From positions 1 through 54,375 of the forward strand of contig WJKE01000102.1 in assembly GCA_014729275.1 (NCBI GenBank): DNA of 54,375 bases. Direction: 5' to 3'. Shown here piece by piece: positions 10,213-52,329 of this stretch. Made by a program: the position numbers and the translations under genes. Within the stretch, counting starts at the first letter, position 1. Every line of letters begins with the position of its first letter. Origin of the DNA: Candidatus Peregrinibacteria bacterium. Lineage in GTDB: Bacteria; Patescibacteriota; Gracilibacteria; UBA1369; LOWO2-01-FULL-3. The notes under the pieces were generated by a model. It was not told the origin of the DNA. It did not search any database and saw only the letters and a program-made list of their open reading frames with translations.

Positions 10213-10434
10213 ACATAAAATTTTGCCTGCGCCTCCGTTTCGATCTCACATAGTTCGTCGAAACTGCGGCTTCGGCACGCTACCTCGCCATTATGTTCAA
10301 TGGGGGCTCACTGAAAAAGCTTGAAAAATTTACGGCCTGACCGGCCAATTTTTCATCGCTTTTTCTCTTTCGCCTTCGGCCACGCTAAGATCGCGTGGCT
10401 CTGCGGCTTCAGACCGTGAGCCTCGCTACTTTCA
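10213..10434. repeat. tRNA-trailer repeat region: two copies of a hairpin module (10225..10290, 10372..10430) plus a GTTCAATGGGG...CTGAAAAAGCTTGA block
   Basis: Shares the blocks AATTTTGCCTGCGCCTCCG, CTGCGGCTTCGG, CTCGCTACT and CTGAAAAAGCTTGA with 41160..41387. Each module contains a hairpin whose stem sequence differs between copies but stays complementary. Confidence 0.6.
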
Positions 10435-10522
10435 TGGCGGAGAGAGGGGGATTTGAACCCCCGGTGAGTTGCCCCACACACGCTTTCCAAGCGTGCGCCT
10501 TCGACCGCTCGGCCACCTCTCC
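10435..10522 (-). tRNA. tRNA-Ser(GGA), class II with long variable arm, CCA encoded
   Basis: Minus strand reads GGAGAGGTGGCCGAGCGGTCGAAGGCGCACGCTTGGAAAGCGTGTGTGGGGCAACTCACCGGGGGTTCAAATCCCCCTCTCTCCGCCA. It has a 7-bp acceptor, anticodon stem CACGC/GCGTG, loop TTGGAAA, and T arm GGGGG/CCCCC. Confidence 0.9.
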
Positions 10523-33170: not shown

Positions 33171-33210
33171 GTTTTATATATAACAGATTTACGTCGGGCC
33201 TGCCAGTGGG

Positions 33211-33373
33211 CTATTTTTGTGAAAATTGATGAATAATTGTGTTTCACCGCTGTGTTCGTAAAACCGGCTTTAAGGCTATTTTTGTGAAAATTGATAAATA
33301 ATTGTGTTTCACCGCTGTGTTCGTAAAACCGGCTTTAAGGCTATTTTTGTGAAAATTGATAAATAATTGTGTT
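33211..33373. repeat. 65-bp tandem direct repeat, 2.5 copies
   Basis: Units at 33211..33275, 33276..33340 and a partial one at 33341..33373 (CTATTTTTGTGAAAATTGAT[G/A]AATAATTGTGTTTCACCGCTGTGTTCGTAAAACCGGCTTTAAGG). Nearly identical; one G/A difference was seen. Confidence 0.9.
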
Positions 33374-33417
33374 AGATAATTTTTTTGTGATAAGTTTTAA
33401 TCCAATTTTTTAATAAT

Positions 33418-38306: not shown

Positions 38307-39005
38307 ATGGGACAAATATATAATATTTATTGTGACGAGAGTTGTCATTTGGAAAATAGTAAAGATAACTCAATGGTTTTAGGCGGAATATGGTGTTTAG
38401 CCGATAAATATCACGACATATCAAAGAGAATTTTGGAAATAAAATCAAAATATAAAATTGCACCTGACTTTGAAATTAAATGGACCAAGGTCTCTCCAGC
38501 TAAAAAAAATTTTTATTTAGAGCTAATTGATTATTTTTTTGATGATGATGATATTCATTTTCGATGTGTTGTTGTTCCTGATAAATCAAAATTAGATCAT
38601 GAAAAATTTGATCAGACGCATGACCAATTTTATTACAAATTGTATTTTGATATGTTGAAAAACATTTTAACACCAAATGAACAATACCGTATTTATATTG
38701 ATATTAAAGATACAAGAGGGGCAATGAAAGTTAAAAAATTACAAGAGGTATTATGTAATAATATGTATGATTTCGATAGAAAAATAGTACAAAGATTTCA
38801 ACAGGTCCGTTCTCATGAAGTAACAATAATGCAAGTAACCGATCTATTAATTGGTGCTGTATCTTATCTATTCAGAGCTTTACAAACTAATTCAGCTAAA
38901 AAAGAACTTGTTGAAAGAATTAAAGAAAGATCCGGTTATTCACTTTATAAATCAACTCTTCTTAAAGAAGAAAAATTTAATCTTTTAGTTTGGGAACCGT
39001 CTTAA
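38307..39005 (+). CDS. DUF3800 family protein
   Basis: 232 aa. The N-terminal IYCDESCH (D-E-S motif) and the later YIDIKDTRG pattern are typical of DUF3800. Confidence 0.6.
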   Translation: MGQIYNIYCDESCHLENSKDNSMVLGGIWCLADKYHDISKRILEIKSKYKIAPDFEIKWTKVSPAKKNFYLELIDYFFDDDDIHFRCVVVPDKSKLDHEKFDQTHDQFYYKLYFDMLKNILTPNEQYRIYIDIKDTRGAMKVKKLQEVLCNNMYDFDRKIVQRFQQVRSHEVTIMQVTDLLIGAVSYLFRALQTNSAKKELVERIKERSGYSLYKSTLLKEEKFNLLVWEPS

Positions 39006-39030
39006 TAATTTTATACTACTTTATACTCTT

Positions 39031-39498
39031 ATGCTAAATTTACCTAATTTGATTAAACTTGAAGATTTTGGTGGAAATTGGGGAAAATATATTGATGCTG
39101 TTTACATGGTTTTTAAGGTTGATTTTTTAGATAAAAACCCAACCTTAAATGGAAAAAGAATCATTTTATGTAATAAAGATTTATATAGAGGTAAAGAAAA
39201 CACATTTTGGCATATAACCTCAGCTGGAAAAGAGGAAGAAGAGCGAATTCCCGATTTTTCAAAATGTGAAAGAATTAGGTGGATTGATTATTATATTAAT
39301 GAAGCCAATAATGATAATGAGTCTATTGTAATATGGGAAGAGGATAGAAAAGTTAAGATTTCTAATGATCAATGGGATTACGTTATTATTTTAATACCAA
39401 CAAGAAACTGCTATTTGTTATTAACTGCATATCCTGTTGAAAGGGAACACCGTAGATTAAAAATTAAAAAATCTTACTTACGCTCAAAATCCGCCTAG
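39031..39498 (+). CDS. hypothetical protein co-oriented with the DUF3800 gene
   Basis: 155-aa ORF, 25 nt downstream of the DUF3800 gene. No confident motif. A hairpin AAATCCG/CGGATTT spans the stop codon. Confidence 0.45.
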   Translation: MLNLPNLIKLEDFGGNWGKYIDAVYMVFKVDFLDKNPTLNGKRIILCNKDLYRGKENTFWHITSAGKEEEERIPDFSKCERIRWIDYYINEANNDNESIVIWEEDRKVKISNDQWDYVIILIPTRNCYLLLTAYPVEREHRRLKIKKSYLRSKSA

Positions 39499-39775
39499 TA
39501 ATAGACGGATTTCGTACTCCTTCTACGCATGGTAGATGAGCTATCTTAATGTTACGGTTTTAGTATTATATTGTCAATATGATTCGTCGGTTATTTGCTT
39601 AATAGTGCGCTTTTGTGAGATTAAAATTAATTCATCAGTATGAGCAATACAAGACTAAGTACTATACAAATATAGTTGAGTGCTAACTCTTAAATAGAGT
39701 TGAAAGTGTTTTTGATTAATTGAATAAAAATTTTTTTTGAAGTATAGATAGGTATATAATTTATATTTATGATTT

Positions 39776-40060
39776 ATGGAAAAAGGACCACAGCTAATTT
39801 TTTTAGGTGTTTGTGATAAATTTAAAGAAACTTTACTTGCAAGTGGAAGATTGGAAGATGGAAAAACTTTTCCAATTACAATGACCAATCTTTTGGGTTT
39901 ACGTTATTTTTATATTTCTTATGTCTATCCCTTACCAATCGATTTTTTTTATTTTGTATTTGCTATAGATATTGCAGATGACTTTGATCAGACATATAAA
40001 ATTAACATTATTGAAGAGGAGTCGATGCAAGAGGCCGGACATATGGAATTAAATATTTAA
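39776..40060 (+). CDS. hypothetical protein (possible accessory ORF or remnant upstream of the Shedu-like gene)
   Basis: 94-aa ORF, 51 nt upstream of 40112. No motif. Very AT-rich context. Confidence 0.3.
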   Translation: MEKGPQLIFLGVCDKFKETLLASGRLEDGKTFPITMTNLLGLRYFYISYVYPLPIDFFYFVFAIDIADDFDQTYKINIIEEESMQEAGHMELNI

Positions 40061-40111
40061 ACGGGATCATATGGATTACAAAAAGGACAGAAGCCCCAAA
40101 ATTATAAAATT

Positions 40112-41086
40112 ATGGGGGTAAAATTAAATGAAAATAATGGCGTAATTTTTAAAAAACCAGCTACTTATCTTATTTCATTGGAGAAAGAAAAAGGTAGTAC
40201 CTTATTAGGTAAAATTCAAATGGAGTATCAACTTTTACCAGAATATACAGATAAGGATCTTAATTTTATTAAAAATGATCCCATGGCTATGAAAAATGTT
40301 AGATTTACTATAGCCTGCAATAAATGTGATGATTTTATAAAACCTTACGTAGGGCTAAAAAAGGATGATGAATTAGCTAAAAAAGACCAACTGATTTGGT
40401 ATAAAGATGTTCCAGATCAATTTATTTGTGGTTGTGGAAAAACAATTGTTGATCTTAAATATATTAAACAAAATTTTCATGCCTTATTAGGAAGGAGGGG
40501 CTTAATTTTTCAAAATAATGGTTCATTTGAGATGGACTTTAATAAATCAGCATTTATTCAGGTTATTACAGATTTTAAAAAGTTAGTTGAAGATGAAACA
40601 AAGGCTCCTACTGGTGAAGCAACGTTACAAGACTTTATTGAAAAGAATCCTATAGTTTTAAGTTGTTTTTCCCCAGAATTGATAGAGCCGAAGGCCCCAA
40701 TTGGTTCAAAATATGAAACAGATTTTGCATTAATTAATCAGAAAAAAGAATTGATATTGATAGAAATTGAAAAACCTTCAACAAAATTGTTTAAAGCAAA
40801 AGGAGGAAGGCATAGTGAAGTTGGGGTAGCTTTTGATCAAGTTGAAGATTGGTTGAAAGAATGTCGTGAAGATAAATTAGGAGTCATTAGAAATTTAAAG
40901 ATGGAAGGTGTAAAAAATGATGATATTTGTGAAATTAGAGGTGTTATTATTGCCGGAAGAACTAAAGAAGAAGATATGGAATATATGGGAAAATTATTGA
41001 ATGGTCATAAGCATATAGACTTTTTTACTTATGACCATTTAATTGAGCAATTAATAGCAATATCTAGATCTTTAAGAGATCTTTAA
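40112..41086 (+). CDS. Shedu-like (DUF4263, PD-(D/E)xK) nuclease-domain protein with N-terminal Cys-rich region
   Basis: 324 aa. C-terminal half: YETDFALINQKKELILIEIEKPSTKLF (D...E-x-K), FDQVEDWL, VIIAGR...FFTYDHLIEQL, which matches my recollection of the DUF4263/SduA core. N-terminal CNKCDDF...CGCGK may be a zinc ribbon. Confidence 0.55.
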   Translation: MGVKLNENNGVIFKKPATYLISLEKEKGSTLLGKIQMEYQLLPEYTDKDLNFIKNDPMAMKNVRFTIACNKCDDFIKPYVGLKKDDELAKKDQLIWYKDVPDQFICGCGKTIVDLKYIKQNFHALLGRRGLIFQNNGSFEMDFNKSAFIQVITDFKKLVEDETKAPTGEATLQDFIEKNPIVLSCFSPELIEPKAPIGSKYETDFALINQKKELILIEIEKPSTKLFKAKGGRHSEVGVAFDQVEDWLKECREDKLGVIRNLKMEGVKNDDICEIRGVIIAGRTKEEDMEYMGKLLNGHKHIDFFTYDHLIEQLIAISRSLRDL

Positions 41087-41159: not shown

Positions 41160-41387
41160 GATTTTTTTCAATGCTAATATTGCGTTCAATAGGGATTTGC
41201 TGAAAAAGCTTGAGATTTTTGCAACCTTCTAATTAGGTATAGCGTTCAATTGGGTCCGCTAAAATTTCGTTGTAATTTGCGGACGCTTTAAGCTGCAAAT
41301 TACTCGAAATTTTGCCTGCGCCTCCGATCAAGTCTCTTTGGAGCTCGCTTGATCTGCGGCTTCGGATCGCAAATCTCGCTACTACCC
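41160..41387. repeat. tRNA-trailer repeat region: one hairpin module (41314..41383) plus two GTTCAAT-GGG blocks
   Basis: Shares AATTTTGCCTGCGCCTCCG, CTGCGGCTTCGG, CTCGCTACT and CTGAAAAAGCTTGA with 10213..10434. The module ends exactly 4 nt from the tRNA 3' end at both loci. Confidence 0.6.
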
Positions 41388-41433
41388 TGGAGCTGCGGAT
41401 GAGATTTGAACTCACGACCCCTTCCTTACCATG
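41388..41433 (-). pseudogene. 3' half of the split host tRNA-Thr(GGT) (anticodon loop to CCA); attR side
   Basis: Minus strand reads CATGGTAAGGAAGGGGTCGTGAGTTCAAATCTCATCCGCAGCTCCA. No matching 5' half lies adjacent; the complementary half is at 51850..51878. Confidence 0.85.
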
Positions 41434-41594
41434 TAGATACTGTAGGGGGTGTGCGGGGTTTTTATTTACTTTAAGCCGAGTTGTTATGAGCGTGCCGGTA
41501 GGTGTGCTGAGGGTGTGGTGAGGCACATCCGGAGTGAAATTTAAGTTGAGTATATCTTCAAAGAAATTAAAATAAAAGTTTAATTTTTAAATCG

Positions 41595-42650
41595 TTATTT
41601 TAGCTTATTTATAATTGTTTTTAGAGATTTTTCGTAACCTTTAATATTTGATGGGTATCTTTTTGATTCGATCCATTTAATTTTTTTAAAATTTAAACCT
41701 TTTCCTTTATATTCAATATTTTGATTTATGTCAGCTGCATCAATATGAGATATTATCCCCGTAGGAATTATGGATGGACCAATTTTAAACTCACGTGAGG
41801 CATATAATGGGAAATTTTTATCAAAATTGCATGGGTCAAAAATGAAAAGAAAAATTTTATAATCATATTCTTTTCTTCTTTTAAATTTGAATTCTCCTAA
41901 CTCTGCATAATGTGAAAGCAAATGCATTGAATGATCTCCTACTCCTATGTCTTCTAAATCAATTTTTCTTAATTTTGCTTTTTTATCTATGATAGAAAAT
42001 TTCTTAAAAAATAGATTCTTTTTTTCATCAAAAATTAACACCAAATATTTGTAACCTATTAAGGGGAAAGTTGTTGATATGCTAATTATTTTGGGAAGAT
42101 TTTTTATACTTGTTTTGCTTCTAACATCAGGAATCCCGATAGACAGTTGGAAGTTAGCGCAATTTATTAGGTCTTCTTGATTAAAGCCTTGTTTATTAAG
42201 TAAATAATCCCAATCAGAAAATTTTGATGGATGCGGGATATAATAATGATAAGAGTAAATAGATATAAATATTAGTGCAGTAATTGTGGCAAGCATTATT
42301 AATGAAGTACTATTAAGATTATTGATACTGAAATTTGCTGAAAATAGGAAAATCATGAACAAACCTATATCAATAATAATTATCCCTAAATAAGAAAGTG
42401 TTATTAGTTTTTGAATATCTTCGTATTCAGATTTATATTTTAAGATTAATTGATTATATTTTCGTATTCTTAGGACCTGTTTATTTTTTTGTTCTAAGTC
42501 TGTTGCGGAGGTTGTTCTTGGCAAGTAAAAGGCAAATAATTTATTCTTTAACTCTCTAATAGTTTTTAGTTGTGGTACTACATAAATTGCAAAAAAATAT
42601 GAATTAATAATGTAAAGAGCTAGGTTAATGTAAGGTTCAAAATTATCCAT
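41595..42650 (-). CDS. multi-TM hypothetical protein (island cargo)
   Basis: 351 aa. One N-terminal TM and a cluster of TM segments around residues 85-135, then a ~200-aa soluble C-terminal region. No motif recognised. Divergent from the RM gene. Confidence 0.5.
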   Translation of the reverse strand: MDNFEPYINLALYIINSYFFAIYVVPQLKTIRELKNKLFAFYLPRTTSATDLEQKNKQVLRIRKYNQLILKYKSEYEDIQKLITLSYLGIIIIDIGLFMIFLFSANFSINNLNSTSLIMLATITALIFISIYSYHYYIPHPSKFSDWDYLLNKQGFNQEDLINCANFQLSIGIPDVRSKTSIKNLPKIISISTTFPLIGYKYLVLIFDEKKNLFFKKFSIIDKKAKLRKIDLEDIGVGDHSMHLLSHYAELGEFKFKRRKEYDYKIFLFIFDPCNFDKNFPLYASREFKIGPSIIPTGIISHIDAADINQNIEYKGKGLNFKKIKWIESKRYPSNIKGYEKSLKTIINKLK

Positions 42651-42787
42651 TGTATTTATTAAAACAATTAGTAATCTACTTTAATAAAAATGTCATAGCA
42701 ATTTAAACAACAAAAAATAGGACTATATTCGAGTTTCATTATCATTTTCAGATAGATATAATAAGGGTGATTTATTAAAAAATTGTC

Positions 42788-45700
42788 GTGGCATCAATTT
42801 TTAAACAAAAAAAATTAAAAGAAGAACTTGAGAAATTTGAAATTCTGGAATTTGAGCAAAAGTTAGAAATAGTCAAAAAATGGCATAAGGCTTATGAAGA
42901 TGGAAGTTTGCAAAAAAAGAGTGAGAAAGAGGTTGAACAAGAGTTTATTCAGAGCTTTTTTGTGGATATTTTAGGATATACTCGATTCCCAGAAAATCCA
43001 CATACAATTATTCCACAGGGAAAAGTTCAAAAGGCTGGAGGTCAAAAACCTGATGCAATTTTGGGGTGTTTTGAGGAAGATAAGAAAATAAAAAGAGTTA
43101 GTGCGGTTTGTGAGATTAAAGATGCAAATACACCTTTAGATAAATCACAACAGAGAGCTGGGAGTATGACTCCGGTCCAGCAAGCTTTTAAATATAAATA
43201 TCAATATGATCGGTGTGATTTTGTGATTGCTACTAACTTTTTTGAAATCCGTCTTTTACAAGATACGGAATTGCATTATGAGAAATGGACATTAAAAACA
43301 CTTGTAGATGAAAAAAATGACTATTTTGACTTTAAAAAGTTTTACTATTTACTCTGTGAGAAAAATTTTGTGGCAAAGACGGGACAAAGTAGAACAGAAA
43401 AACTTCTATCGGAAATTCGGATTGAGGAAGAAGCAATTACCAAAAAGTTTTATGGTGAATACAAGAGTTTAAGATTAAGTTTGATTGGAAATATTTTGGC
43501 TAATAATGAGGAATTCTTAGGAGAGAATGCCTTGGATATTGCGATTGAAAAAGCTCAAAAGATTATTGATAGGATTGTTTTTGTATGTTTTTGTGAGGAC
43601 CTTGATTTGCTGCCTCAGCATAAATTGAAGGAAGTAGTCAATCATACTGAGAAAGTTGGTTTAGCTTTGCCGATTTGGGATATTATGAAAGGATTCTTTA
43701 ATGCTATTGATAGAGGTAGTGAAAAATTAGAGATTCCGCATGGTTTCAATGGTGAGTTATTTAAACAAGATCCTTTATTAGAAGGACTTAGAATTGATGA
43801 TGAACTTTGTAAGAGGTTTGTAGATTTAGGAAAATATGATTTTAGCGAAGATTTGACTGTAAATATTTTAGGACATATCTTTGAGCAATCAATAAGCGAT
43901 ATTGAAGATTTGAAGGCTTTGGATGATGTTGAAGAGCTTACAAAGAAGAAGTCAAAAAGGAAGAAGGAAGGCATTTTCTACACTCCCGAGTATATTGTTG
44001 ATTATATTGTAAAAAATTCAGTTGGGACTTGGCTTAAGGAAAGAGAAAAGGAATTATTAAAAAAACATGGGGTTAAGGAAGGTATTGAAGATAAAAATTA
44101 TAAGAAAAGATATCAAGCGGCTTATGAGGAATATCAAGGAGTTTTACAAAATATTAAAGTGTTAGATCCGGCCTGTGGTAGTGGTGCTTTTTTGGTGAAA
44201 GTATTTGATTATTTATTAGAAGAGAATAAAAGAGTGGGAGAGATTTTAGGAAATATATTTAGTGATGAAGGTTATATTAAAGACATTTTGCAGAATAATA
44301 TTTATGGTGTGGATTTAAATGAAGAGAGCGTGGAGATAACAAAATTATCTTTATGGTTAAAGACCGCAGAGAAAGGGAAAAAATTAACAACTTTAAAAGA
44401 AAATATAAAATGTGGAAATAGCTTAATAGATGATGTGGAAGTCGCTGGGGATAAAGCTTTTATATGGGAAAAGGAATTTAAAGAGATTATGGAAGCAGGG
44501 GGATTTGATGTGATTGTGGGAAATCCTCCATATGTAAGACAAGAACTGTTGAATTCAAAAATTAAAGAATTTTTAAATGTTAAGTATGATAATGTTGGCT
44601 CTTTTACTGCGGATCTTTATGTTTATTTTTTTGGGCTTTCATTGAGATTGCTTAATAGTAAAGGATTTTTAGGTTTTATTGCTCCAAATAAATGGATGGA
44701 AAGAAAATACGGATTTAACATGAGATGTTATATAAAAAATTATAATATTATTTATATAGTTAATTATGGAGAATTAAAGATTTTTGAGGATGCGAGTACT
44801 GAACCTGCAATATATATAATTAAAAATATCGAATCTCAAGATGATATCAACTATTCAAGATTAGAAAATTTAGCTTTAGCGCAAGCTACAGCCAATTATC
44901 ATTATGAAAAATATAAAAAATTTAATTTAGATGATAAAATATGGAGGTTTATTCCAAAAGAAAATCAAGTAATTTTAAATAAATTTCTAAAGAGCAATAA
45001 AAAAATATCTACTATTGGTGATTATACAAAGGGTGGTATCAAATATGGGATAAAAACTGGTTATAATACTGCTTTTATTATTAAAGAAGAGCAAAAAGAA
45101 CTTTTGATTGAAAATGATATAAAATCTTCTGAAATAATTAAACCTATGGTGGAAGGGGATGATTTTTCTGACTGGCATTTAATAAAGCAGGATAAATATA
45201 TGCTTGCTACTGGATATGATCTTGATATTCCTTCAGTATATCCTGCCATCTATGAATATTTAAAAAGTTACGAAGAAAAATTAATCAATAGATATGATAA
45301 AGGAGTAAATTATTGGAATCTAAGAGCTTGTGACTATTATGACTTGTTAGAGAAACCTAAAATTATCTTTTATCACACTGCAAAGCATCATTCTTTTTAT
45401 TATGATGAAGAGGGATTATATATAAGTGCAAATTGTTATTTTATTACAAATGTAGATAGATATTTGCAATGCTTTTTGAATTCGAAATTGTTTCAATTTG
45501 TTAAGAGGTATTTATTTCCGTCTTTTGGAGATCCAGAAAAAGGAGGACGTATGAGACTAGATGCAAATCAAATGAGAAAGGTTCCTATTGTTATTCCCGA
45601 AGCAAATCAAAAAGATGAATTTCATAAATTGGCAGAAAAAATTTCAAAATTTTCGACAGAAAGGCAGAGTGTTTTGGATAAGTTCGATAAGTTATTAAAA

Positions 45701-45952
45701 CAAGAATATAGTTTTAAATTTAAGAGTTCTCACATTTACAACTGGGATAAATTTATAGAAGAATTTAAGAAACAAAAAATTAAATTATCTTTATCTCAAA
45801 AAGATGAATTACTTCAAATTTTTGAAAAATATCAAAAGGAAATATTTGATTTTGATAATAAGATTAAGGCCATCGAGGAACAAATAAATAATGAAGTATT
45901 TGATTTATATGACTTAACTGATGATGAGAGAAGAATCGTATTAAATTTTTAA
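42788..45952 (+). CDS. type IIG/IIL restriction-modification fusion enzyme (N-terminal PD-ExK nuclease + Eco57I-like N6-adenine methyltransferase + TaqI_C-like target-recognition domain)
   Basis: 1054 aa with a GTG start. Nuclease-like PDAILG...VCEIKDAN. Methyltransferase motif I VLDPACGSGAFL and motif IV VIVGNPPYV. TRD-like region IWRFIP...GGIKYGIKTGYNTAFII. Confidence 0.8.
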   Translation: MASIFKQKKLKEELEKFEILEFEQKLEIVKKWHKAYEDGSLQKKSEKEVEQEFIQSFFVDILGYTRFPENPHTIIPQGKVQKAGGQKPDAILGCFEEDKKIKRVSAVCEIKDANTPLDKSQQRAGSMTPVQQAFKYKYQYDRCDFVIATNFFEIRLLQDTELHYEKWTLKTLVDEKNDYFDFKKFYYLLCEKNFVAKTGQSRTEKLLSEIRIEEEAITKKFYGEYKSLRLSLIGNILANNEEFLGENALDIAIEKAQKIIDRIVFVCFCEDLDLLPQHKLKEVVNHTEKVGLALPIWDIMKGFFNAIDRGSEKLEIPHGFNGELFKQDPLLEGLRIDDELCKRFVDLGKYDFSEDLTVNILGHIFEQSISDIEDLKALDDVEELTKKKSKRKKEGIFYTPEYIVDYIVKNSVGTWLKEREKELLKKHGVKEGIEDKNYKKRYQAAYEEYQGVLQNIKVLDPACGSGAFLVKVFDYLLEENKRVGEILGNIFSDEGYIKDILQNNIYGVDLNEESVEITKLSLWLKTAEKGKKLTTLKENIKCGNSLIDDVEVAGDKAFIWEKEFKEIMEAGGFDVIVGNPPYVRQELLNSKIKEFLNVKYDNVGSFTADLYVYFFGLSLRLLNSKGFLGFIAPNKWMERKYGFNMRCYIKNYNIIYIVNYGELKIFEDASTEPAIYIIKNIESQDDINYSRLENLALAQATANYHYEKYKKFNLDDKIWRFIPKENQVILNKFLKSNKKISTIGDYTKGGIKYGIKTGYNTAFIIKEEQKELLIENDIKSSEIIKPMVEGDDFSDWHLIKQDKYMLATGYDLDIPSVYPAIYEYLKSYEEKLINRYDKGVNYWNLRACDYYDLLEKPKIIFYHTAKHHSFYYDEEGLYISANCYFITNVDRYLQCFLNSKLFQFVKRYLFPSFGDPEKGGRMRLDANQMRKVPIVIPEANQKDEFHKLAEKISKFSTERQSVLDKFDKLLKQEYSFKFKSSHIYNWDKFIEEFKKQKIKLSLSQKDELLQIFEKYQKEIFDFDNKIKAIEEQINNEVFDLYDLTDDERRIVLNF

Positions 45953-45958
45953 TTAATT

Positions 45959-46711
45959 ATGTCCGAATATTACACACCAAAAAGAACCAGAAATTTATAT
46001 GCCACTAAAAGTAAAGAACCTTTTAAATTAAGTCGGTCCAAAATAGATTTATTTGTTGAATGTCCTAAATGTTTTTATTTAGATAGAAAATTGGGAGTTG
46101 CAAGACCTCCTGGCTTTCCTTTTGCTCTTAATAGTGCTGTAGATGCTTTGTTAAAACAAGAGTTTGATATTCACAGACTTAAAGGGACAAAACATCCTTT
46201 GATTAAAAAATATGGTATTGATGCTATTCCAATTTCACATGTTGAACTTGATAATTGGAGAAATAATTTTAAAGGCGTGCAATATCTTCACAAATCCACA
46301 AATTTACTCATTTTTGGAGCTATAGACGATCTTTGGCAGAATTCAAAGGGTGAGTTCATTGTTGTAGATTACAAGGCTACAGCGAAAGCTGAAGATATCA
46401 CGGTGCTTGATAAAAGTTGGCATGAGGGTTATAAGAGGCAAATGGAAGTTTACCAATGGCTATTGAGAAAAAATGGATACAAGGTCTCTGACATCGGTTA
46501 TTTTGTTTATTGTAATGGGAAAGCGGACCGAAAGGCTTTTGATGGAAAACTTGAATTTGATGTTACCGTGATCCCTTATAAAGGTTCTGATAAATGGGTG
46601 CCGAAAAAAATTAAAGAAACTTATAAGTGTTTGAATTCTTCAAAGATTCCAAAAGCTTCTGAGGATTGTGATTATTGTAATTATAGAGATGCTGTTTCAA
46701 GTGTACTTTAA
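45959..46711 (+). CDS. Cas4/RecB-like PD-(D/E)xK nuclease with four-Cys cluster
   Basis: 250 aa, 6 nt after the RM gene. N-terminal CPKC, core GAIDDLW...FIVVDYKAT (D...D-Y-K), QMEVYQWL (QxxxY), C-terminal CDYC. Confidence 0.65.
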   Translation: MSEYYTPKRTRNLYATKSKEPFKLSRSKIDLFVECPKCFYLDRKLGVARPPGFPFALNSAVDALLKQEFDIHRLKGTKHPLIKKYGIDAIPISHVELDNWRNNFKGVQYLHKSTNLLIFGAIDDLWQNSKGEFIVVDYKATAKAEDITVLDKSWHEGYKRQMEVYQWLLRKNGYKVSDIGYFVYCNGKADRKAFDGKLEFDVTVIPYKGSDKWVPKKIKETYKCLNSSKIPKASEDCDYCNYRDAVSSVL

Positions 46712-46800
46712 TCTAAAATTACAATAGTTTTTGAGGCTTATAAAAAAGAGTCCCTTAAGCGAAAATTTGAGTTTTTCGTCTATATAAAAAAGGGGCAAAA

Positions 46801-46839
46801 AAATAGTATTTTCGGGTATATAAAAAGAGATTATTTTTT
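46801..46839 (+). promoter_or_regulatory. conserved upstream motif, copy 1 (AAATAGTATTTTCGGGTATATAAAAAGAGATTATTTTTT)
   Basis: Nearly identical to 47670..47709. Contains a TATATAA -10-like element. A degenerate extra copy lies at 46772..46793. Lies 47 nt upstream of the ATG at 46886. Confidence 0.45.
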
Positions 46840-46885
46840 AATAAATATTTTATAGATGATATAATCATTGCCTTAATAATTTATT

Positions 46886-47671
46886 ATGAAAAGTTCTTTT
46901 ACGATAAAAGTTTCTAAGCCATTATCGGAGGGAGAGGCAAAACCAGAAGCTATGGTGGGAGATGCTGAAGGTAATTGGAAACCTACGGACAAAATAATTT
47001 GGGCTAGAATGCATGTTGAAAATGACATTAAAGAATTGGAAGAAATTTTTAATCCGTATAAAGAATATTTTTCAACTGGTCGAATAAAAAATATTCGATA
47101 TAAATTATATGCTTTAAGATATGAAAAAGAAGCTTATATAAAGGCTGAAGAAGAAAAAGAGCGTGAATATAAAAAAGGATTTCAACCGGGTTTAGGAATG
47201 GAATTTACAGAATCAAATTTGAGAGCTCTATATCGAGTAGAGTCTTTTCTTTTTCAAGCAAAAAGTACATTAGATATTATGTCTCTTATTTTAAAGGATA
47301 AAATCCAAAATTATACCTTTGAGGGGTTTGGAAAATCTTGTGACGAAAATAATGAGGAGCTTGCAGGTCAAAAGATTATAAAGGAATTAAAAAAAATAGA
47401 TTCTGAACATGATTTTGAACCCTTGATAAAATTAATAAAGGACAATCAGTCTTGGCTTACTGAATTAGTAAAAGAAAGAGACAAGATTGCTCATAATACT
47501 TCTATTCAAGCTTTATGGTTTGTTGAGCTTACATATAAAGGGGGTGATTATCTTGAAATTGTTTATCCCCATATGCCCAACGATATTCGAATAAAAGAAT
47601 ATTTAGAATTAGTTGAAAGAAGGTTACATATTTTTGTGCAGAATTTTTTATCTTTGGTTTCAAAATTTTAA
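46886..47671 (+). CDS. hypothetical protein with HEPN-like R-x4-H motif (RDKIAH)
   Basis: 261 aa. ELVKERDKIAHNTS resembles the R[ND]xxAH catalytic motif of Abi-type HEPN RNases. This is single-motif evidence only. Confidence 0.4.
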   Translation: MKSSFTIKVSKPLSEGEAKPEAMVGDAEGNWKPTDKIIWARMHVENDIKELEEIFNPYKEYFSTGRIKNIRYKLYALRYEKEAYIKAEEEKEREYKKGFQPGLGMEFTESNLRALYRVESFLFQAKSTLDIMSLILKDKIQNYTFEGFGKSCDENNEELAGQKIIKELKKIDSEHDFEPLIKLIKDNQSWLTELVKERDKIAHNTSIQALWFVELTYKGGDYLEIVYPHMPNDIRIKEYLELVERRLHIFVQNFLSLVSKF

Positions 47672-47709
47672 ATAGTTTTTTCGGGTATATAAAAAGAGAT
47701 TAATTTTTT
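47670..47709 (+). promoter_or_regulatory. conserved upstream motif, copy 2 (AAATAGTTTTTTCGGGTATATAAAAAGAGATTAATTTTTT)
   Basis: Nearly identical to 46801..46839. Starts at the stop codon of the preceding gene and ends 10 nt before the ATG at 47719. Confidence 0.45.
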
Positions 47710-47718
47710 GGAATAAAA

Positions 47719-48423
47719 ATGTATTATTCGGCTATGGAAGATTTTTTGTTTTACCTGCAATTACTGATTAAATCAGTGCCTTCATTTAATGAGGGGGTCG
47801 AGGCTATTCGAAATAAATATAAATGCTACCCTTCGACCTCTATGCATGATAACAGGGCTGATTTAAGAGATGTCCGGAAATTAATGGAAGAACATTTTAT
47901 TCCGGATAAGGAAAAATATTTGGACCTCGTTTGTAAATTTATATACACAAATACCTTTTCCAATAAATATCTCGTTAGAGACTGTTTAAATGCCTCTGAG
48001 GAGCATCCCAGAGAGTTGGTCGTTACACGCCCGGCTATAACAATACATATTTTTGAAAAGATGAATGAGGAGGAATGGAGGGATATTTGGAGTAAATATA
48101 TAAAAGAGGGGCATTTAGAAATTAATTATGGAGATCATATCGAAGGACCGGCGTGGTTAGAAAAAGAAGATAAAAGGGAATACTTGAATAAAATGTCTAT
48201 TGAAGCTTTAAAGCGTCCTCATAGTGATATTAAGAAACAATTAAATTTTCGTTTGGCTTTTAAACTTTTTGGGCTTCGTAAGAATCGAGTTGAAATTTCT
48301 GAAATTTTAGATAAAATGGCATCGATAAAGGAAGAATGTGGAATTAGTAAGAAGAGAATATTTACAAAAGAAGAGGTTAATCAAATGATTTCCGACTTCG
48401 CAAAAGAGTTAGAAAAGCTTTAG
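47719..48423 (+). CDS. hypothetical protein (island cargo)
   Basis: 234-aa ORF preceded by the conserved motif. No domain recognised. Confidence 0.45.
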   Translation: MYYSAMEDFLFYLQLLIKSVPSFNEGVEAIRNKYKCYPSTSMHDNRADLRDVRKLMEEHFIPDKEKYLDLVCKFIYTNTFSNKYLVRDCLNASEEHPRELVVTRPAITIHIFEKMNEEEWRDIWSKYIKEGHLEINYGDHIEGPAWLEKEDKREYLNKMSIEALKRPHSDIKKQLNFRLAFKLFGLRKNRVEISEILDKMASIKEECGISKKRIFTKEEVNQMISDFAKELEKL

Positions 48424-48520
48424 TCTAGAGCACGATAAATCCCCGCGAACTTTACTCTGAGGATTTTTTTATAATGTTGATTTACCATCGGGTTGCTTTT
48501 GTAATTAAAGAAAACATCCC

Positions 48521-49504
48521 GTGATAGATGAATCAAACAAATTGTGGAAATTACTGCCGGATTCGGAAATTAAATCTTTCAAATCCAAAGTACCCCCAAA
48601 CCAAAAACCATTATGGTTTTACTGGAATGAATTTGTCCATAAATATTTAAGAACCGGTAAAAGTGAAATAACGGTTAGTAATGTTCGTGATGCATTAAGG
48701 TTTATAATCCGGAATGTGAGTCTGTATTCTATTGAACAGGTTAATGATCACCGGACTTTGGAAGATTTTTTGCATAAGGTAAAAGACAAGAGGGGGCTTA
48801 ATCCAACGACATTTAATACTTATTTGAAAAATCTAAATACATTTTTTATTTGGCTTCACAGACAGGATTATATTGCTGATAACAATATTTTGAAGGTTCA
48901 AAAATGCAAACAGACCGAGAACGAACAATATATATTATCCGAGACTCAGGTTAAACAGATTGTCTCTCATATTCATGACCGGAGACAAACACGTTTATTG
49001 AGATTCAGAAATATTTTTTTTATTGATTTGCTTAGGTTTACCGGGGCAAGGCCTTGTGAGATACAGGAAATTCAATGTAAGGATATAAGAGGTGAAAAAG
49101 GGACATACGTCTTAGTGATTCATGGGAAAAAGCAGAAAGGAAAACCACGGTATTATAGATTCCCTTCGTGGCTTAGGGATTCTTATGAGAATTATGTTTC
49201 TTACCGGTCCCGTGTCCGTGATAACGAGTCTTATTTGTTCATTTCTTCGTCAACACAGGGGCGGTGGACTTCTAAGGGGATGAAATGCCTCTTTAACAAA
49301 CTGTCTGATGAATTGGGCTTTAGAGTAATTGCTTACGGTTTCAGGAGGTATGTGGCAACAAAGCTATATTTAGCTGAGGTCCCGATGACAGACATTCAAC
49401 AATATTTAGGGCATACAAGGATTACTACGACTATAAGGTATGTTGAGAGGACATGTGCTTTGACTAAGAAGGGGGCGGATGTGATGGGGAAGGCGTTAAA
49501 TTAA
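48521..49504 (+). CDS. tyrosine recombinase/integrase (second, inward-facing copy)
   Basis: 327 aa with a GTG start. Has FTGARPCEI (Arg I), HGKKQKGK (Lys), YGFRRYVAT (box II, with the His apparently replaced) and LGHTRITTTIRY (His/Tyr). Confidence 0.75.
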   Translation: MIDESNKLWKLLPDSEIKSFKSKVPPNQKPLWFYWNEFVHKYLRTGKSEITVSNVRDALRFIIRNVSLYSIEQVNDHRTLEDFLHKVKDKRGLNPTTFNTYLKNLNTFFIWLHRQDYIADNNILKVQKCKQTENEQYILSETQVKQIVSHIHDRRQTRLLRFRNIFFIDLLRFTGARPCEIQEIQCKDIRGEKGTYVLVIHGKKQKGKPRYYRFPSWLRDSYENYVSYRSRVRDNESYLFISSSTQGRWTSKGMKCLFNKLSDELGFRVIAYGFRRYVATKLYLAEVPMTDIQQYLGHTRITTTIRYVERTCALTKKGADVMGKALN

Positions 49505-50709
49505 TTTATTCCTCTAAAGAACGGATATAATTCTTTAATTTCATTTGAAAGCCCAAACTTATTGAAAGTTGTCATGGCTATTCTCAAAATATGAGGGTGC
49601 TCTTCTAAATTTTCATAAATATCTAATTTTAATCTTTGAAGTCTTTCTCTTTTATTTAATATTTTTGAGAAATATAAAATTATTAAATTTTCAAGATTGT
49701 TTATATCTGTGATATTTATATTATTAAGTTCGGATTCTATTTCTATATGATTTTTTATTGATAAATAAGTAAATACTAGACTATTAGGGAATAATTCATC
49801 TTGGATTTTTGATATTTGTAAATTTTGAATAAACTTATTAAGAGTTTTTTGTCCAAATATTTTTTTAAAAAAATTTTGAAATCCAGTTCCCCATAATATT
49901 TCATTTGATTTAATTCTACATAAATCTGAAGTCTGATATGTAATTAGTGAAGAATTAAATAAATTTTTTGGTGAATAAATAATTAATAATAAATTCATTA
50001 TTTTTAAACACTTAATATGAAAAACTAAAATTTTTTTTACTTTCAGAATTTCTCGAATAATAAAGTCGTTTTGTAATAAAGTCTCAGAGCATAATGCCCC
50101 TTGCTTATGGGTATATTTTGATAAGTTATGATACATTTCTCCAATAAAGTTTTTAGAAATAATCGAATCATTATTTGCAAAGTCTGTATTATAGAGCTGA
50201 ATTGTATTTTTAAAATATTTTGCTTGATAATCTAAAATTGGTGTTAATGCCCCCTTAAAACTTATAGGGCAACTTCCGTTATCCCAACTTGTTAACTCAC
50301 TATTTATATTATCTTTTTGAAATAGAAGACCAAAAATTTTTACTACTGTCTCCAAACAATTTCTCAATAAGCTTGCACTGGAATTAATTTTGAAATTTTT
50401 AAGAAGAAGTAATGAATTTTCGATTTCAGAATATGATTCAAGAAAATATTTTAATATTTGTGAATAATTGTTTTTATTCTCCTTTTTGATTACGCTTAGA
50501 GATAGATTAAAAGTTTTAAACCAATTTGATTCAATAAATTCTATTTGCTTGAAATCTTCATCTTCACATATTTTTGTAAATAAAATTCTAAAAATTATAT
50601 CTAACTCTGGAAGATTTAATTTAACGTCTGTGTCATTTTGAATCATTAATTTATATACCTGTTGACTCTCTTTAATTTTATTTTCGACAATAGTTGGATC
50701 AGTAATCAT
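49501..50709 (-). CDS. hypothetical protein co-transcribed with the att-proximal integrase
   Basis: 402 aa in extremely AT-rich sequence. Starts 3 nt after the integrase stop. Its 3' end overlaps the convergent recombinase gene by 4 nt. No domain recognised. Confidence 0.45.
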   Translation of the reverse strand: MITDPTIVENKIKESQQVYKLMIQNDTDVKLNLPELDIIFRILFTKICEDEDFKQIEFIESNWFKTFNLSLSVIKKENKNNYSQILKYFLESYSEIENSLLLLKNFKINSSASLLRNCLETVVKIFGLLFQKDNINSELTSWDNGSCPISFKGALTPILDYQAKYFKNTIQLYNTDFANNDSIISKNFIGEMYHNLSKYTHKQGALCSETLLQNDFIIREILKVKKILVFHIKCLKIMNLLLIIYSPKNLFNSSLITYQTSDLCRIKSNEILWGTGFQNFFKKIFGQKTLNKFIQNLQISKIQDELFPNSLVFTYLSIKNHIEIESELNNINITDINNLENLIILYFSKILNKRERLQRLKLDIYENLEEHPHILRIAMTTFNKFGLSNEIKELYPFFRGIN

Positions 50710-50712
50710 GCC

Positions 50713-51609
50713 TTAATTTAACGAATGCATCTCAATCGATTTACTCAGTTGTTGATTTGAACAATAAAGGTAAATCGTGGTTGTGGTTATTCTACTATGT
50801 CCCATTATCTTAGATAAAGTATAAATGTCACAGCCCCCTTCGAGCATAAGGCGGGCGAATGCATGTCTTAAAATATGAGCGGAAAAATCTATTTCGGTCC
50901 TTTGTTTGATTTTATTTATAAGCTTCTTTATGCAACTCTCTGTTATTGGTTCATCTTTTTGAGCACCGGTGAAAAAGTGGATGCACGTTTTATTCATCCG
51001 GTCCCGTTCCTTCAAATATTCCTCCAATATTTGAGCAAGTTTGCAGTTTACGGGAACCAAGCGATCTTTACTCCATTTTGCCTGTGAGATGAATATTGTC
51101 CGGTTTTCCAACGAGACATCATTTAACTTTAGCTTTATGACCTCTTGCCTTCTCAGTCCGGCTAAGACCATAATTCCGATGATTGCACGATTCCGGTATC
51201 TTTCAATTTTAAAGTGATATCGCATATGATATGAGGTATCCAAAATCAGAGTTGCTTCGTCCTTTGATAAGGTTCGGGGGAGTTTGTGCTCTATGCGTGG
51301 TTTTTCAATCGATTCCAAATGATTCTCTTCAATGTGCTTTTCCCGAATAAGCCATTTGATAAAAGGATTTAAATGTTTATAGTGATCCCGAAATGTGGAA
51401 GCGGACCATTTCCTTTCAAGCCTTCCATTGTAAAACCATTTCTCCAAAAGATCCCTTGTTAGGTCCTGTGGATATTCGGCACCGGATTCTCTTAAGAATA
51501 ATTTAAAAGTAGTTTGGTATGATTTGATTGTGTACTTTGAAAAGTTTCGGATAATCGTGCAAAACTGGAGATAGCGAAACATAAGGTCCTTTAACTTTGG
51601 GGTGTCCAT
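50713..51609 (-). CDS. tyrosine recombinase/integrase (XerC/D-like), att-proximal
   Basis: 298 aa. Has LAGLRRQEV (Arg I), SAHILRHAFA (HxxR) and MGHSRITTTTIYLY (His, Tyr nucleophile). Adjacent to and co-oriented with the island tRNA-Thr. Confidence 0.85.
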   Translation of the reverse strand: MDTPKLKDLMFRYLQFCTIIRNFSKYTIKSYQTTFKLFLRESGAEYPQDLTRDLLEKWFYNGRLERKWSASTFRDHYKHLNPFIKWLIREKHIEENHLESIEKPRIEHKLPRTLSKDEATLILDTSYHMRYHFKIERYRNRAIIGIMVLAGLRRQEVIKLKLNDVSLENRTIFISQAKWSKDRLVPVNCKLAQILEEYLKERDRMNKTCIHFFTGAQKDEPITESCIKKLINKIKQRTEIDFSAHILRHAFARLMLEGGCDIYTLSKIMGHSRITTTTIYLYCSNQQLSKSIEMHSLN

Positions 51610-51649
51610 AAATAAGTGATTAAGAAATAAATCTTTATCACTCCAAACG

Positions 51650-51725
51650 TGGAGCCACCAAGCAGAATTGAACTGCTGACCTCGCCCTTACCATGGGCGC
51701 GCTCTACCAACTGAGCTATGGTGGC
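51650..51725 (-). tRNA. tRNA-Thr(GGT), complete, CCA encoded; island-borne
   Basis: Minus strand reads GCCACCATAGCTCAGTTGGTAGAGCGCGCCCATGGTAAGGGCGAGGTCAGCAGTTCAATTCTGCTTGGTGGCTCCA. Acceptor GCCACCA/TGGTGGC, anticodon stem CGCCC/GGGCG, loop ATGGTAA, T arm AGCAG/CTGCT. Confidence 0.9.
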
Positions 51726-51838
51726 TTAAAGTAATTTTTCAGGGCCACATCTCCGCAGGTGTGGCGTTTGTACTGATTTTCAATTGTTCGATTTCCTTAT
51801 CTTCCAGAGCAGAGTCGGTTCTTTTTTCGAGGGTCGCA

Positions 51839-51878
51839 TCCTTACCATGGAAGTGCTCTACCCCTGAGCTACCGCAGC
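51839..51878 (-). pseudogene. 5' half of the split host tRNA-Thr(GGT) (acceptor 5' strand to anticodon loop); attL side
   Basis: Minus strand reads GCTGCGGTAGCTCAGGGGTAGAGCACTTCCATGGTAAGGA and is then followed by non-tRNA sequence. The acceptor and anticodon-stem strands are exactly complementary to those in 41388..41433. Confidence 0.85.
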
Positions 51879-52086
51879 CGGTATAAAAATTCGCATCGAA
51901 TTTTACGGCATAGTTAGGGCTTTTTCAAGTTTTTGTGCAAAGTGTTTTTGTGCGGTATTTGGCTTAAAAAAAAGCGGAGAGCTCCTAGAAAGGATTCTCC
52001 GACTTTTATCTGCTTCTAGAATTATTTTATCTGATTAATCAAAATATGCAAGCTTTTCTATCCGGTTCTAAAAATACGCAGAGGTA

Positions 52087-52152: not shown

Positions 52153-52329
52153 ATGACAAAGGGAAAAAGTCAATGTTGTACATGGTTCTGCGGTCAATGT
52201 AATAAAGCCAATTATGTGACTTTCTACAATAGATCACGCAATGACGAAATTACAAAAGTATTAAAAAAATTCTGTCCCCAATGCCGAGCTCACTCTGAGC
52301 ACAAAAGGAAAGACACCAAAAAAGGGTAA
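52153..52329 (+). CDS. rpmG: 50S ribosomal protein L33
   Basis: 58 aa, below the ORF-track cutoff. Manual translation: MTKGKSQCCTWFCGQCNKANYVTFYNRSRNDEITKVLKKFCPQCRAHSEHKRKDTKKG. It has the CxxC...CxxC zinc ribbon and the KKFCPxCRxHxxHKE-like tail of L33. Confidence 0.85.
   Translation: MTKGKSQCCTWFCGQCNKANYVTFYNRSRNDEITKVLKKFCPQCRAHSEHKRKDTKKG

Follow-up and report, generated by a model that had tools for sequence, protein, structure and literature searches.

The closest described counterpart of the locus considered here is the tRNA-dependent lysogeny of actinobacteriophages, among them Fionnbharth (K4), Cluster L, Gaia, BrutonGaster and others, which integrate through cores of 8-17 bp, do not rebuild the tRNA that they disrupt and, as experiment has established, form viable lysogens only with a cognate tRNA of their own (Guerrero-Bustamante & Hatfull, mBio 2024, PMC10865867). 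The published targets of such replacing phages are Lys-TTT, Ile2-CAT and Leu-CAA; one integrase family can include both restoring and replacing phages, and the authors asked how widespread the principle is beyond actinobacteriophages (PMC10865867). Earlier notices concern the Lactobacillus prophage Lj965 and some Sinorhizobium prophages. The DNA analysed here, which we call the window, is a stretch of 54,375 nt (contig WJKE01000102.1, assembly GCA_014729275.1) from a Candidatus Peregrinibacteria metagenome-assembled genome (MAG), and it contains a 10.4-kb island at 41434-51839. We think it likely that this non-phage island split a host tRNA-Thr(GGT) gene at the anticodon loop and that, without restoring that gene, it supplies a divergent replacement with the same anticodon. 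The anatomy of the locus, the statistics of its core, the folds of both tRNAs, recurrence in a family of relatives and covariation carry this reading.

The + strand of the window has three copies of the 10-mer CCTTACCATG, at 41424, 51686 and 51840, against 0.03 expected, and none of 100 shuffles reached three. At the left junction, attL, the core copy (51840..51849) reads CCTTACCATG on the + strand and CATGGTAAGG on the tRNA strand, spanning C31, the 7-nt anticodon loop and G39-G40. It belongs to the 5' half (nt 1-39) of a host tRNA-Thr(GGT), which occupies 51840..51878 of the - strand on the host side of attL and reads, from 51878 to 51840, GCTGCGGTAGCTCAGGGGTAGAGCACTTC-CATGGTAAGG: the acceptor strand GCTGCGG, the D arm, the anticodon-stem strand CTTCC, the loop ATGGTAA and GG. 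The 3' half lies 10.4 kb away on the same strand (41388..41433), includes the attR core copy (41424-41433) and reads, from 41433 to 41388, CATGGTAAGG-AAGGGGTCGTGAGTTCAAATCTCATCCGCAGCTCCA. Taken in parts, CATGGTAAGG-AAGGGGTC-GTGAG-TTCAAAT-CTCAT-CCGCAGC-TCCA, it provides GGAAG, the variable loop, the T arm GTGAG/CTCAT, the acceptor strand CCGCAGC, U73 and CCA, which is exactly what the 5' half misses. Upon joining the two halves in silico, one obtains a tRNA-Thr(ggt) of 75 nt that folds into a perfect cloverleaf, its acceptor stem paired at 7/7 positions and its anticodon stem at 5/5. An intact tRNA that matches this joined host tRNA in anticodon, D arm and T arm is found on 21 metagenome contigs. 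The joined sequence thus represents a naturally occurring tRNA, but the contigs share no flank with the window and do not represent the empty site.

As they stand, the junctions give no tRNA: ARAGORN calls none at attL or attR, and an Rfam scan of the region 41300-52000 at E<=10 finds no match at either. An earlier first-pass annotation of this DNA had proposed that the attL junction can form neither the anticodon stem nor the T arm. The T arm is indeed missing, together with the acceptor 3' strand, whereas the statement about the anticodon stem was too strong, since the junction sequence GGATG pairs with the host CTTCC at 4/5 positions. A functional tRNA arising from the attL junction, which would have told against that annotation, is seen neither by ARAGORN nor by Rfam.

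Between attL and the recombinase gene stands instead a complete tRNA-Thr(GGT) of 76 nt with encoded CCA (51650..51725, - strand), called by ARAGORN and matched by the Rfam tRNA model at 65.5 bits (E 9e-13). Its elements run in the order GCCACCA...CGCCC-ATGGTAA-GGGCG...AGCAG-TTCAATT-CTGCT-TGGTGGC-TCCA, with acceptor, anticodon and T stems GCCACCA/TGGTGGC, CGCCC/GGGCG and AGCAG/CTGCT, respectively, and it is 71% identical to the joined host tRNA; a complete, divergent tRNA-Thr(GGT) with such stems is what the first reading of the sequence had described. The gene is intron-less, retains the core and is oriented as the host gene is. The interval between it and the attL core is 114 nt (51726-51839), one more than the 113 bp first reported, although the position given was right, and 40 nt separate its end from the recombinase ATG (51609), so that its placement directly upstream of the integrase holds. 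A gathering-mode Rfam scan of the whole window omitted this 65.5-bit tRNA, which the regional scan recovered; because a real tRNA was dropped, the filters of the whole-window scan are unreliable here.

The tRNAs carried by such islands are under clear structural selection. In an alignment of 29 carried tRNAs, 99.7% of stem cells show standard pairing and 13 of 21 pairs show two-sided compensatory change, with a covariation score of 0.624 versus 0.178 upon shuffling; slid controls pair at 35-50%. Every host and island tRNA-Thr seen has the same G1-C72, C2-G71, C3-G70, U73 and anticodon loop, while other stem positions vary. The identity set of the E. coli threonyl-tRNA synthetase comprises G1-C72, C2-G71, G35 and U36. 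Pairing, covariation and invariant positions together form the pattern of a working tRNA gene, not of a relic. The island tRNA would be expressed, charged and needed for ACC/ACU decoding, a need to which this conservation lends indirect support.

The same design recurs well beyond the window. Starting from the island's recombinase Int1, a scan of one genome per species gave 269 related loci, of which 80 were retrieved with flanks (the Lxxx labels below denote loci within this fetched set), and a protein search gave 490 homologues at E<=1e-20. In most of the 80 loci a tRNA, usually tRNA-Thr(ggt), precedes int by 40-140 nt and shares its strand, and the recurrent layout is a tRNA-Thr 5' half, a non-tRNA arm, a complete tRNA-Thr(GGT), int, 5-11 kb of further sequence, a left arm, and the loop with the 3' half. 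An automatic classification of architecture run over 81 loci found the host 5' half, full tRNA and int in at least 29, the host loop lying 147-190 nt upstream of the carried-tRNA loop. L009 and L058 show the same layout by eye, having been missed automatically due to a variant D arm. Among 15 loci in which the carried tRNA is interrupted by an intron-like insertion (see below), nine have a host 5' half just upstream (L013, L043, L048, L050, L054, L059, L065, L071 and L072), which brings the replacing layout to at least 40 loci. Where both halves are present, in 17 loci, all 17 joined tRNAs fold as tRNA-Thr(GGT) with acceptor strands that pair 7/7; these islands measure 5.4-10.7 kb, and host and island tRNAs are 71-93% identical. 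The split halves, the tRNA-less junction and this layout in at least 40 loci bear out the first-pass claim of replacement rather than 3'-end restoration. The hosts include Peregrinibacteria, Gracilibacteria, Parcubacteria, Saccharibacteria, Gammaproteobacteria and Bacteroidota, and the layout-bearing assemblies include the complete chromosome OY760177.1 and the isolate genome of Niastella populi.

In L035 (1291-1569) and L041 (9729-10001) the split gene is a tRNA-Lys(CTT), and the complete tRNA carried is likewise a tRNA-Lys(CTT), with 147-148 nt from loop to loop. That a switch of target is mirrored in the carried tRNA argues that the carried tRNA serves to replace the target. More distant members of the family, beside Lys(TTT), Thr(CGT) and other tRNAs, resemble classical restoring elements; in L022 and L060, for example, the 3' half of the intact tRNA recurs unchanged as a direct repeat further downstream. 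In some genomes (L002:9896, L016:9742-9897, L032 and L055) both the host and the carried tRNA have T for A at position 32, giving the loop TTGGTAA, and the core hence co-varies between target and element. Several related contigs end within a few hundred bases of the tRNA.

The arms that flank the core define the mobile unit. The island-side arm of attL/attP (51726..51839, - strand, 114 nt) begins ATGCGACCCTCGAAAAAAG, contains neither T arm nor acceptor strand and is homologous to the family arm, which begins GGRTGTACYCCTC... in close relatives and TAAACAGGTCTA... in a second group. The island-side arm of attR/attP (41434..41478, - strand) reads GGCTTAAAGTAAATAAAAACCCCGCACACCCCCTACAGTATCTAC on the tRNA strand, ends at the core and is homologous to the left arm that precedes the 3' half in the family, GGCT-N5-TAAGCCAAAA...TATWC. 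Both window arms align with those of the family, yet they diverge more from the family consensus than most do. Because they are homologous to the family arms, the island tRNA lies inside the mobile unit. Within the attL arm is a hairpin, GCCACA-N10-TGTGGC (51744..51765), the position of which matches that of a covarying hairpin in the relatives (alignment A3, columns ~75-115). There the stems covary, for example CCAGAACAC...GTGTCTCTGG, around a conserved CCCTCGNGGAA-like loop 20-30 nt upstream of the carried tRNA; the structure may be a recombinase or accessory site, or else a leader structure. A simple inverted-repeat search of the reconstructed attP gave a clear pair in some loci, such as GGAGTACAT/ATGTACTCC in L010, and none at the window attP.

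The locus would have arisen as follows. One or more Xer-like recombinases, Int1 probably together with a second enzyme, Int2, would have recombined the island attP, made up of left arm, CATGGTAAGG and right arm (expected circular junction ...CAGTATCTA-CATGGTAAGG-ATGCGACCCTCG...), with the anticodon loop of the host tRNA-Thr(GGT). As attP and the tRNA overlap in the loop-centred 10-bp core only, two dead halves result, the 5' one at attL and the 3' one at attR. The island tRNA would then be transcribed from the host tRNA promoter by way of the orphan 5' half and the arm and be freed by RNase P, while a hairpin between tRNA and int would insulate int. The presumed host promoter, a TTGAAA-17-TAAAAT site recognised by its match to the consensus (51900..51928, - strand), precedes the 5' end of the host tRNA by ~21 nt. 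Transcription from it would now pass the 5' half and the arm before reaching the island tRNA, and the - strand of the 114-nt arm itself showed no promoter-like site. Between the island tRNA and the int ATG there is a weak hairpin, AGTGAT-N16-ATCACT, followed by TATTT (51615..51642, - strand), and relatives have strong terminator hairpins with T-runs at the same place. Precise excision, of which the island is presumably still capable, would rebuild the host gene as attB (...GAGCACTTC-CATGGTAAGG-AAGGGGTCGTGAG...). It was suggested at first pass that the carried tRNA acts as an addiction or compensation device. Compensation is supported; addiction is speculative and, given that precise excision would restore the host gene, would be limited to a penalty for imprecise loss. 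Since the crossover would need the universal anticodon loop only, with no matching of stems, the tRNA-Thr(GGT) of almost any bacterium could be entered, and carriage of a whole tRNA, which removes the need to match host stems, would account for the distribution across phyla.

Several points weigh against this reconstruction. The insertion is deduced from the split gene rather than from a before-and-after pair: one metagenome scan for the intact joined (host-type) tRNA gave no empty site with the same flanks, and exact-protein look-ups with Int1 and the flanking 583-aa host protein matched no other contig and yielded neither a sister strain nor an empty site. A second tRNA-Thr(GGT) may be present elsewhere in the genome, of which one 54-kb contig was examined, and the essentiality raised at first pass depends on how many such genes there are; the expression of the island tRNA is predicted from its sequence. 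Promoter capture is based in the window on a single consensus match, and the family is equivocal in this respect, a promoter-like site preceding the host half in 10 of 35 loci and lying within the arm in 6 of 37. Lastly, with its diverged arms and an extra 402-aa open reading frame (ORF) between int1 and int2, the window copy may no longer be mobile.

Of the competing explanations, the one that survives best, improbable as we consider it, takes the island tRNA to be cargo of another purpose, an anticodon-nuclease decoy or spare, or a codon-usage booster, whose isoacceptor match to the split gene is coincidental. Mobile elements often carry such tRNAs, a possible additional selective force has been raised for the phages (PMC10865867), and the island is itself a defence island. 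Coincidence is difficult to reconcile, however, with a carried tRNA that is the split isoacceptor in every architecture-positive locus, including those that switched to Lys(CTT), and with a position and orientation that do not change with respect to attL and int (147-190 nt between the loops). A decoy would, moreover, gain no escape from a loop-specific nuclease, because the island loop is identical to that of the host.

A classical restoring island, in which 51650-51725 would be the host gene, rebuilt from a 5' part of the host and a 3' part of the island after crossover at a Williams class I type of site, and the split halves would be older debris, we regard as very unlikely. Class I sites, reportedly set apart by Williams in 2002, have their crossover in the anticodon loop, as does P22 at thrW. 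An intact tRNA followed by int does resemble an ordinary attL, and some distant members of the same family (L022, L060) are classical, but the 3' half of the island tRNA is repeated nowhere in the window, as such an island would require. The remaining core copies sit at the two halves of a single other tRNA, which enclose int and all the low-GC cargo, and the arm between the host 5' half and the island tRNA has homologues among the island arms of many unrelated hosts. Less likely still is an assembly artefact in which two tRNA-Thr loci were falsely joined via their shared anticodon-loop sequence, for although the contig comes from a MAG and related contigs break near the tRNA, a repeat that thus troubles assemblers, 10 bp is far below assembler k-mer sizes and the same layout with complementary halves appears in dozens of independent assemblies, OY760177.1 and the Niastella populi isolate among them.

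Integration by replacement would be the work of small recombinases. Int1 (50713..51609, - strand; Pfam PF00589, 8.8e-32) is a Xer-like tyrosine recombinase of 298 aa with, as in the Xer resolvases of ~300 aa, a SAM-like N-terminal domain, and it has no arm-binding domain. Its nearest solved structures are XerA and XerD, and it scores 168.1 bits with the NCBIfam model for XerD (cut-off 329.6) and 159.1 with that for XerC (cut-off 335.15). The gene is island-borne, with several copies in some genomes (L013/L014). Int1 occurs at 55-77% identity in many genomes of the candidate phyla radiation (CPR), and a role as housekeeping XerC/D was considered and rejected on account of the sub-threshold NCBIfam scores, the multiple copies, the unrelated phyla and the constant linkage to a split tRNA. 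The second enzyme, Int2 (48521..49504, + strand; Pfam PF00589, 4.7e-20), is a 327-aa Xer-like tyrosine recombinase, also without an arm-binding domain, that is 23% identical to Int1 and is encoded convergently with int1. By tblastn, 66 of 80 loci match Int2 at E<=1e-5, although the weaker of these may be int1 cross-matches; in the 25 best-scoring loci a separate convergent Int2 gene (30-63% identity) stands just downstream of int1. Int1, Int2 and the tRNA are the conserved core of the family, and the two recombinases probably act together as one system. The 402-aa ORF directly downstream of int1 in the window (49501..50709, - strand) is island-specific: it is absent from the 80 related loci and has no match in Pfam, NCBIfam, PHROGs or PADLOC. 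Downstream of int, LOOT RNA (RF03000) is found in L050 (20260-20383) and L065 (12544-12674) at 89 and 76 bits, respectively. The L065 match lies inside the island; no attR was located in L050.

In 15 relatives (L013, L033, L043, L048, L050, L054, L056, L059, L065, L068, L070, L071, L072, L075 and L078) an insertion parts nt 36 of the carried tRNA-Thr from nt 37, immediately behind ATGGT (ATGGT|intron|AA) and exactly at the crossover site. It is conserved, at 194-234 nt in the ten cases measured: L013:9700-9906, L043:9693-9899, L048:7109-7326, L050:9507-9700, L054:6143-6341, L059:9688-9896, L065:9702-9899, L068:9693-9899, L071:9711-9919 and L072:9680-9913. ARAGORN does not call these genes, yet upon removing the insertion in silico one obtains a valid tRNA-Thr(ggt) in 10/10. 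In all ten, the U at the end of the 5' exon pairs with an invariant G (P1), and the insertion ends in G. RNAalifold gives it a fold of 50 pairs, 23 of them compensatory. Its AAGATACAGTC resembles AAGAUAUAGUC of Tetrahymena, both of which we take to be R/S-like elements of group I introns. The Rfam Intron_gpI model does not match the insertion at its gathering threshold or at E<=10, for which reason the label stays at probable: on structure and covariation the insertion is probably a group I intron, with self-splicing predicted.

By its position the insertion takes the ATGGTAA core out of the element's own tRNA gene, and it may thus shield the carried tRNA from being targeted again. Such targeting of carried tRNAs is visible in nested integrations, L043 (9367-10001) with L046 (9871-10001) on contig PKTK01000006.1 and L013 (9544) with L014 (9905) on OY760177.1, where an intron-bearing element sits inside an intron-less tRNA that directly precedes another int. 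In L008 (47-181) the carried tRNA has been cut down to its 3' half. None of the 15 intron-bearing tRNAs is itself split, although the cases are too few for a statistical test. In L056, L066 (6673) and L070 the carried tRNA follows an arm-core-arm (attP-like) junction, as expected of tandem arrays. A bolder proposal, for which we would claim rather less than an even chance, is that of a pan-bacterial family of small islands with defence cargo, independent of host tRNA sequence and engaged in an arms race over the loop, in one lineage of which a self-splicing group I intron shields the crossover point by taking the target out of the DNA while the RNA stays functional. If true, this would be the first natural and experimentally tractable tRNA intron that shields a gene from site-specific integration; among the carriers is a cultured strain, Niastella populi CCTCC AB 208238 (L070).

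The cargo region of the island spans 41595..48423. It encodes a 1054-aa type IIG restriction-modification (RM) enzyme (42788-45952; PADLOC 2.8e-139), a Cas4-like PD-(D/E)XK nuclease (45959-46711), two ORFs without assignment (46886-47671 and 47719-48423) and, on the - strand, a 351-aa ORF that is possibly a membrane protein (41595-42650). No phage genes were found in the island, both recombinases being its only PHROGs matches, and no relatives were found in IMG/VR viral contigs; the element is a non-phage integrative defence island, not a prophage. At 26-34%, the island is lower in GC than the host part, where the first 37 kb of the window have 33-41%. To the right of the island is housekeeping DNA, with rpmG (52153-52329) beside the host tRNA 5' half and a tRNA-Trp, one of the three tRNA genes that ARAGORN finds in the window, the tRNA-Thr(ggt) at 51650-51725 included.

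Directly outside attR lies a low-GC (27-30%) defence cluster (38307-41086) that comprises PDC-M04 A/B (38307-39498), A being a DUF3800 protein, and the Shedu gene SduA (40112-41086). The family member L050 carries homologues of the PDC-M04 pair as cargo. That this region (38.3-41.1 kb) is an older tandem island was considered and rejected, as no further tRNA half, arm or att remnant was found in the window. Some 240 bp that follow tRNA-Ser(GGA) (10290-10463) and the host tRNA-Thr 3' half (41179-41416) are ~70% identical to one another (repeat families D3 and D5). This repeat has no Rfam match downstream of either gene and may be a conserved tRNA-trailing element or a small RNA. A tRNA-Ser(GGA) also adjoins the tRNA-Thr site in L002, L006, L007 and L010-L012. 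Elsewhere in the host part, at 33209-33403, is a tandem repeat of three copies of a 65-nt unit (100%, 98% and 66% identity) that is unrelated to the island.

Among described systems, the XerC/XerD, XerA and XerH resolvases include the best sequence and structural relatives of Int1, and the possible two-recombinase arrangement recalls XerC/XerD. Unlike these resolvases, Int1 falls below the equivalog cut-offs, is island-borne and in some genomes multi-copy, and is linked to an att site in a tRNA gene rather than to dif. Randau and Soll are said to have put forward, in 2008, the hypothesis that split or intron-containing tRNA genes protect against integrating elements. Their case is that of archaeal, protein-spliced introns in host genes, whereas here 15 relatives have a probable group I intron in the tRNA of the bacterial element itself, and these relatives make the old idea of protective tRNA introns directly testable.

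With classical tRNA islands (Islander database, PMC4383910) the island shares a crossover in the anticodon stem-loop, an int beside the tRNA and direct repeats of the core. The classical islands carry the 3' part of the tRNA, regenerate the gene and displace a 3' fragment; here both halves are displaced and a whole gene is supplied, what follows the attL core does not resemble a tRNA, and the 3' half of the island tRNA has no second copy in the window. Tycheposons, too, differ from this island in using classical partial tRNAs. Island finders that expect a restored tRNA with a 3' fragment are affected by the design described here, and so is MAG assembly, as contigs are interrupted there. The decoding set of a minimal CPR genome may include an island-encoded tRNA, which matters for estimates of the tRNA complement.

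The likeness is closest to tRNA-dependent lysogeny. Here, too, a tyrosine recombinase has its attB in a host tRNA gene, the core is short (10 bp), nothing is rebuilt at attL, the element has a cognate tRNA of its own, and restoring and replacing members occur within the one Int1 family. The differences are that this element is a non-phage RM island; that its small Xer-like recombinase has no lambda-type arm-binding domain and is accompanied by a conserved second recombinase; that the target is tRNA-Thr(GGT), with the carried tRNA at a constant place, ~115 nt into the island from attL and collinear with the host gene; and that the family spans several phyla, CPR included, while the need for the tRNA is predicted here from sequence. 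In a non-exhaustive literature search we found no description of this family, of Xer-like recombinase pairs or tRNA-Thr(GGT) targets with this design, of non-phage or CPR tRNA-replacing islands, or of bacterial tRNA-Thr group I introns. To disrupt a tRNA and bring one's own would, then, be what a large family of non-phage islands does as a rule and not a curiosity of a few actinobacteriophages. The broad host range of a site-specific element would be explained by a host requirement for an anticodon loop of 7-10 nt that cannot change, and a recombinase pair with so short and universal a target is of possible interest as a broad-host integration tool. The principle has been known since 2024 from phages; the non-phage island, the recombinase pair, the fixed geometry and the broad host range are what differ here.

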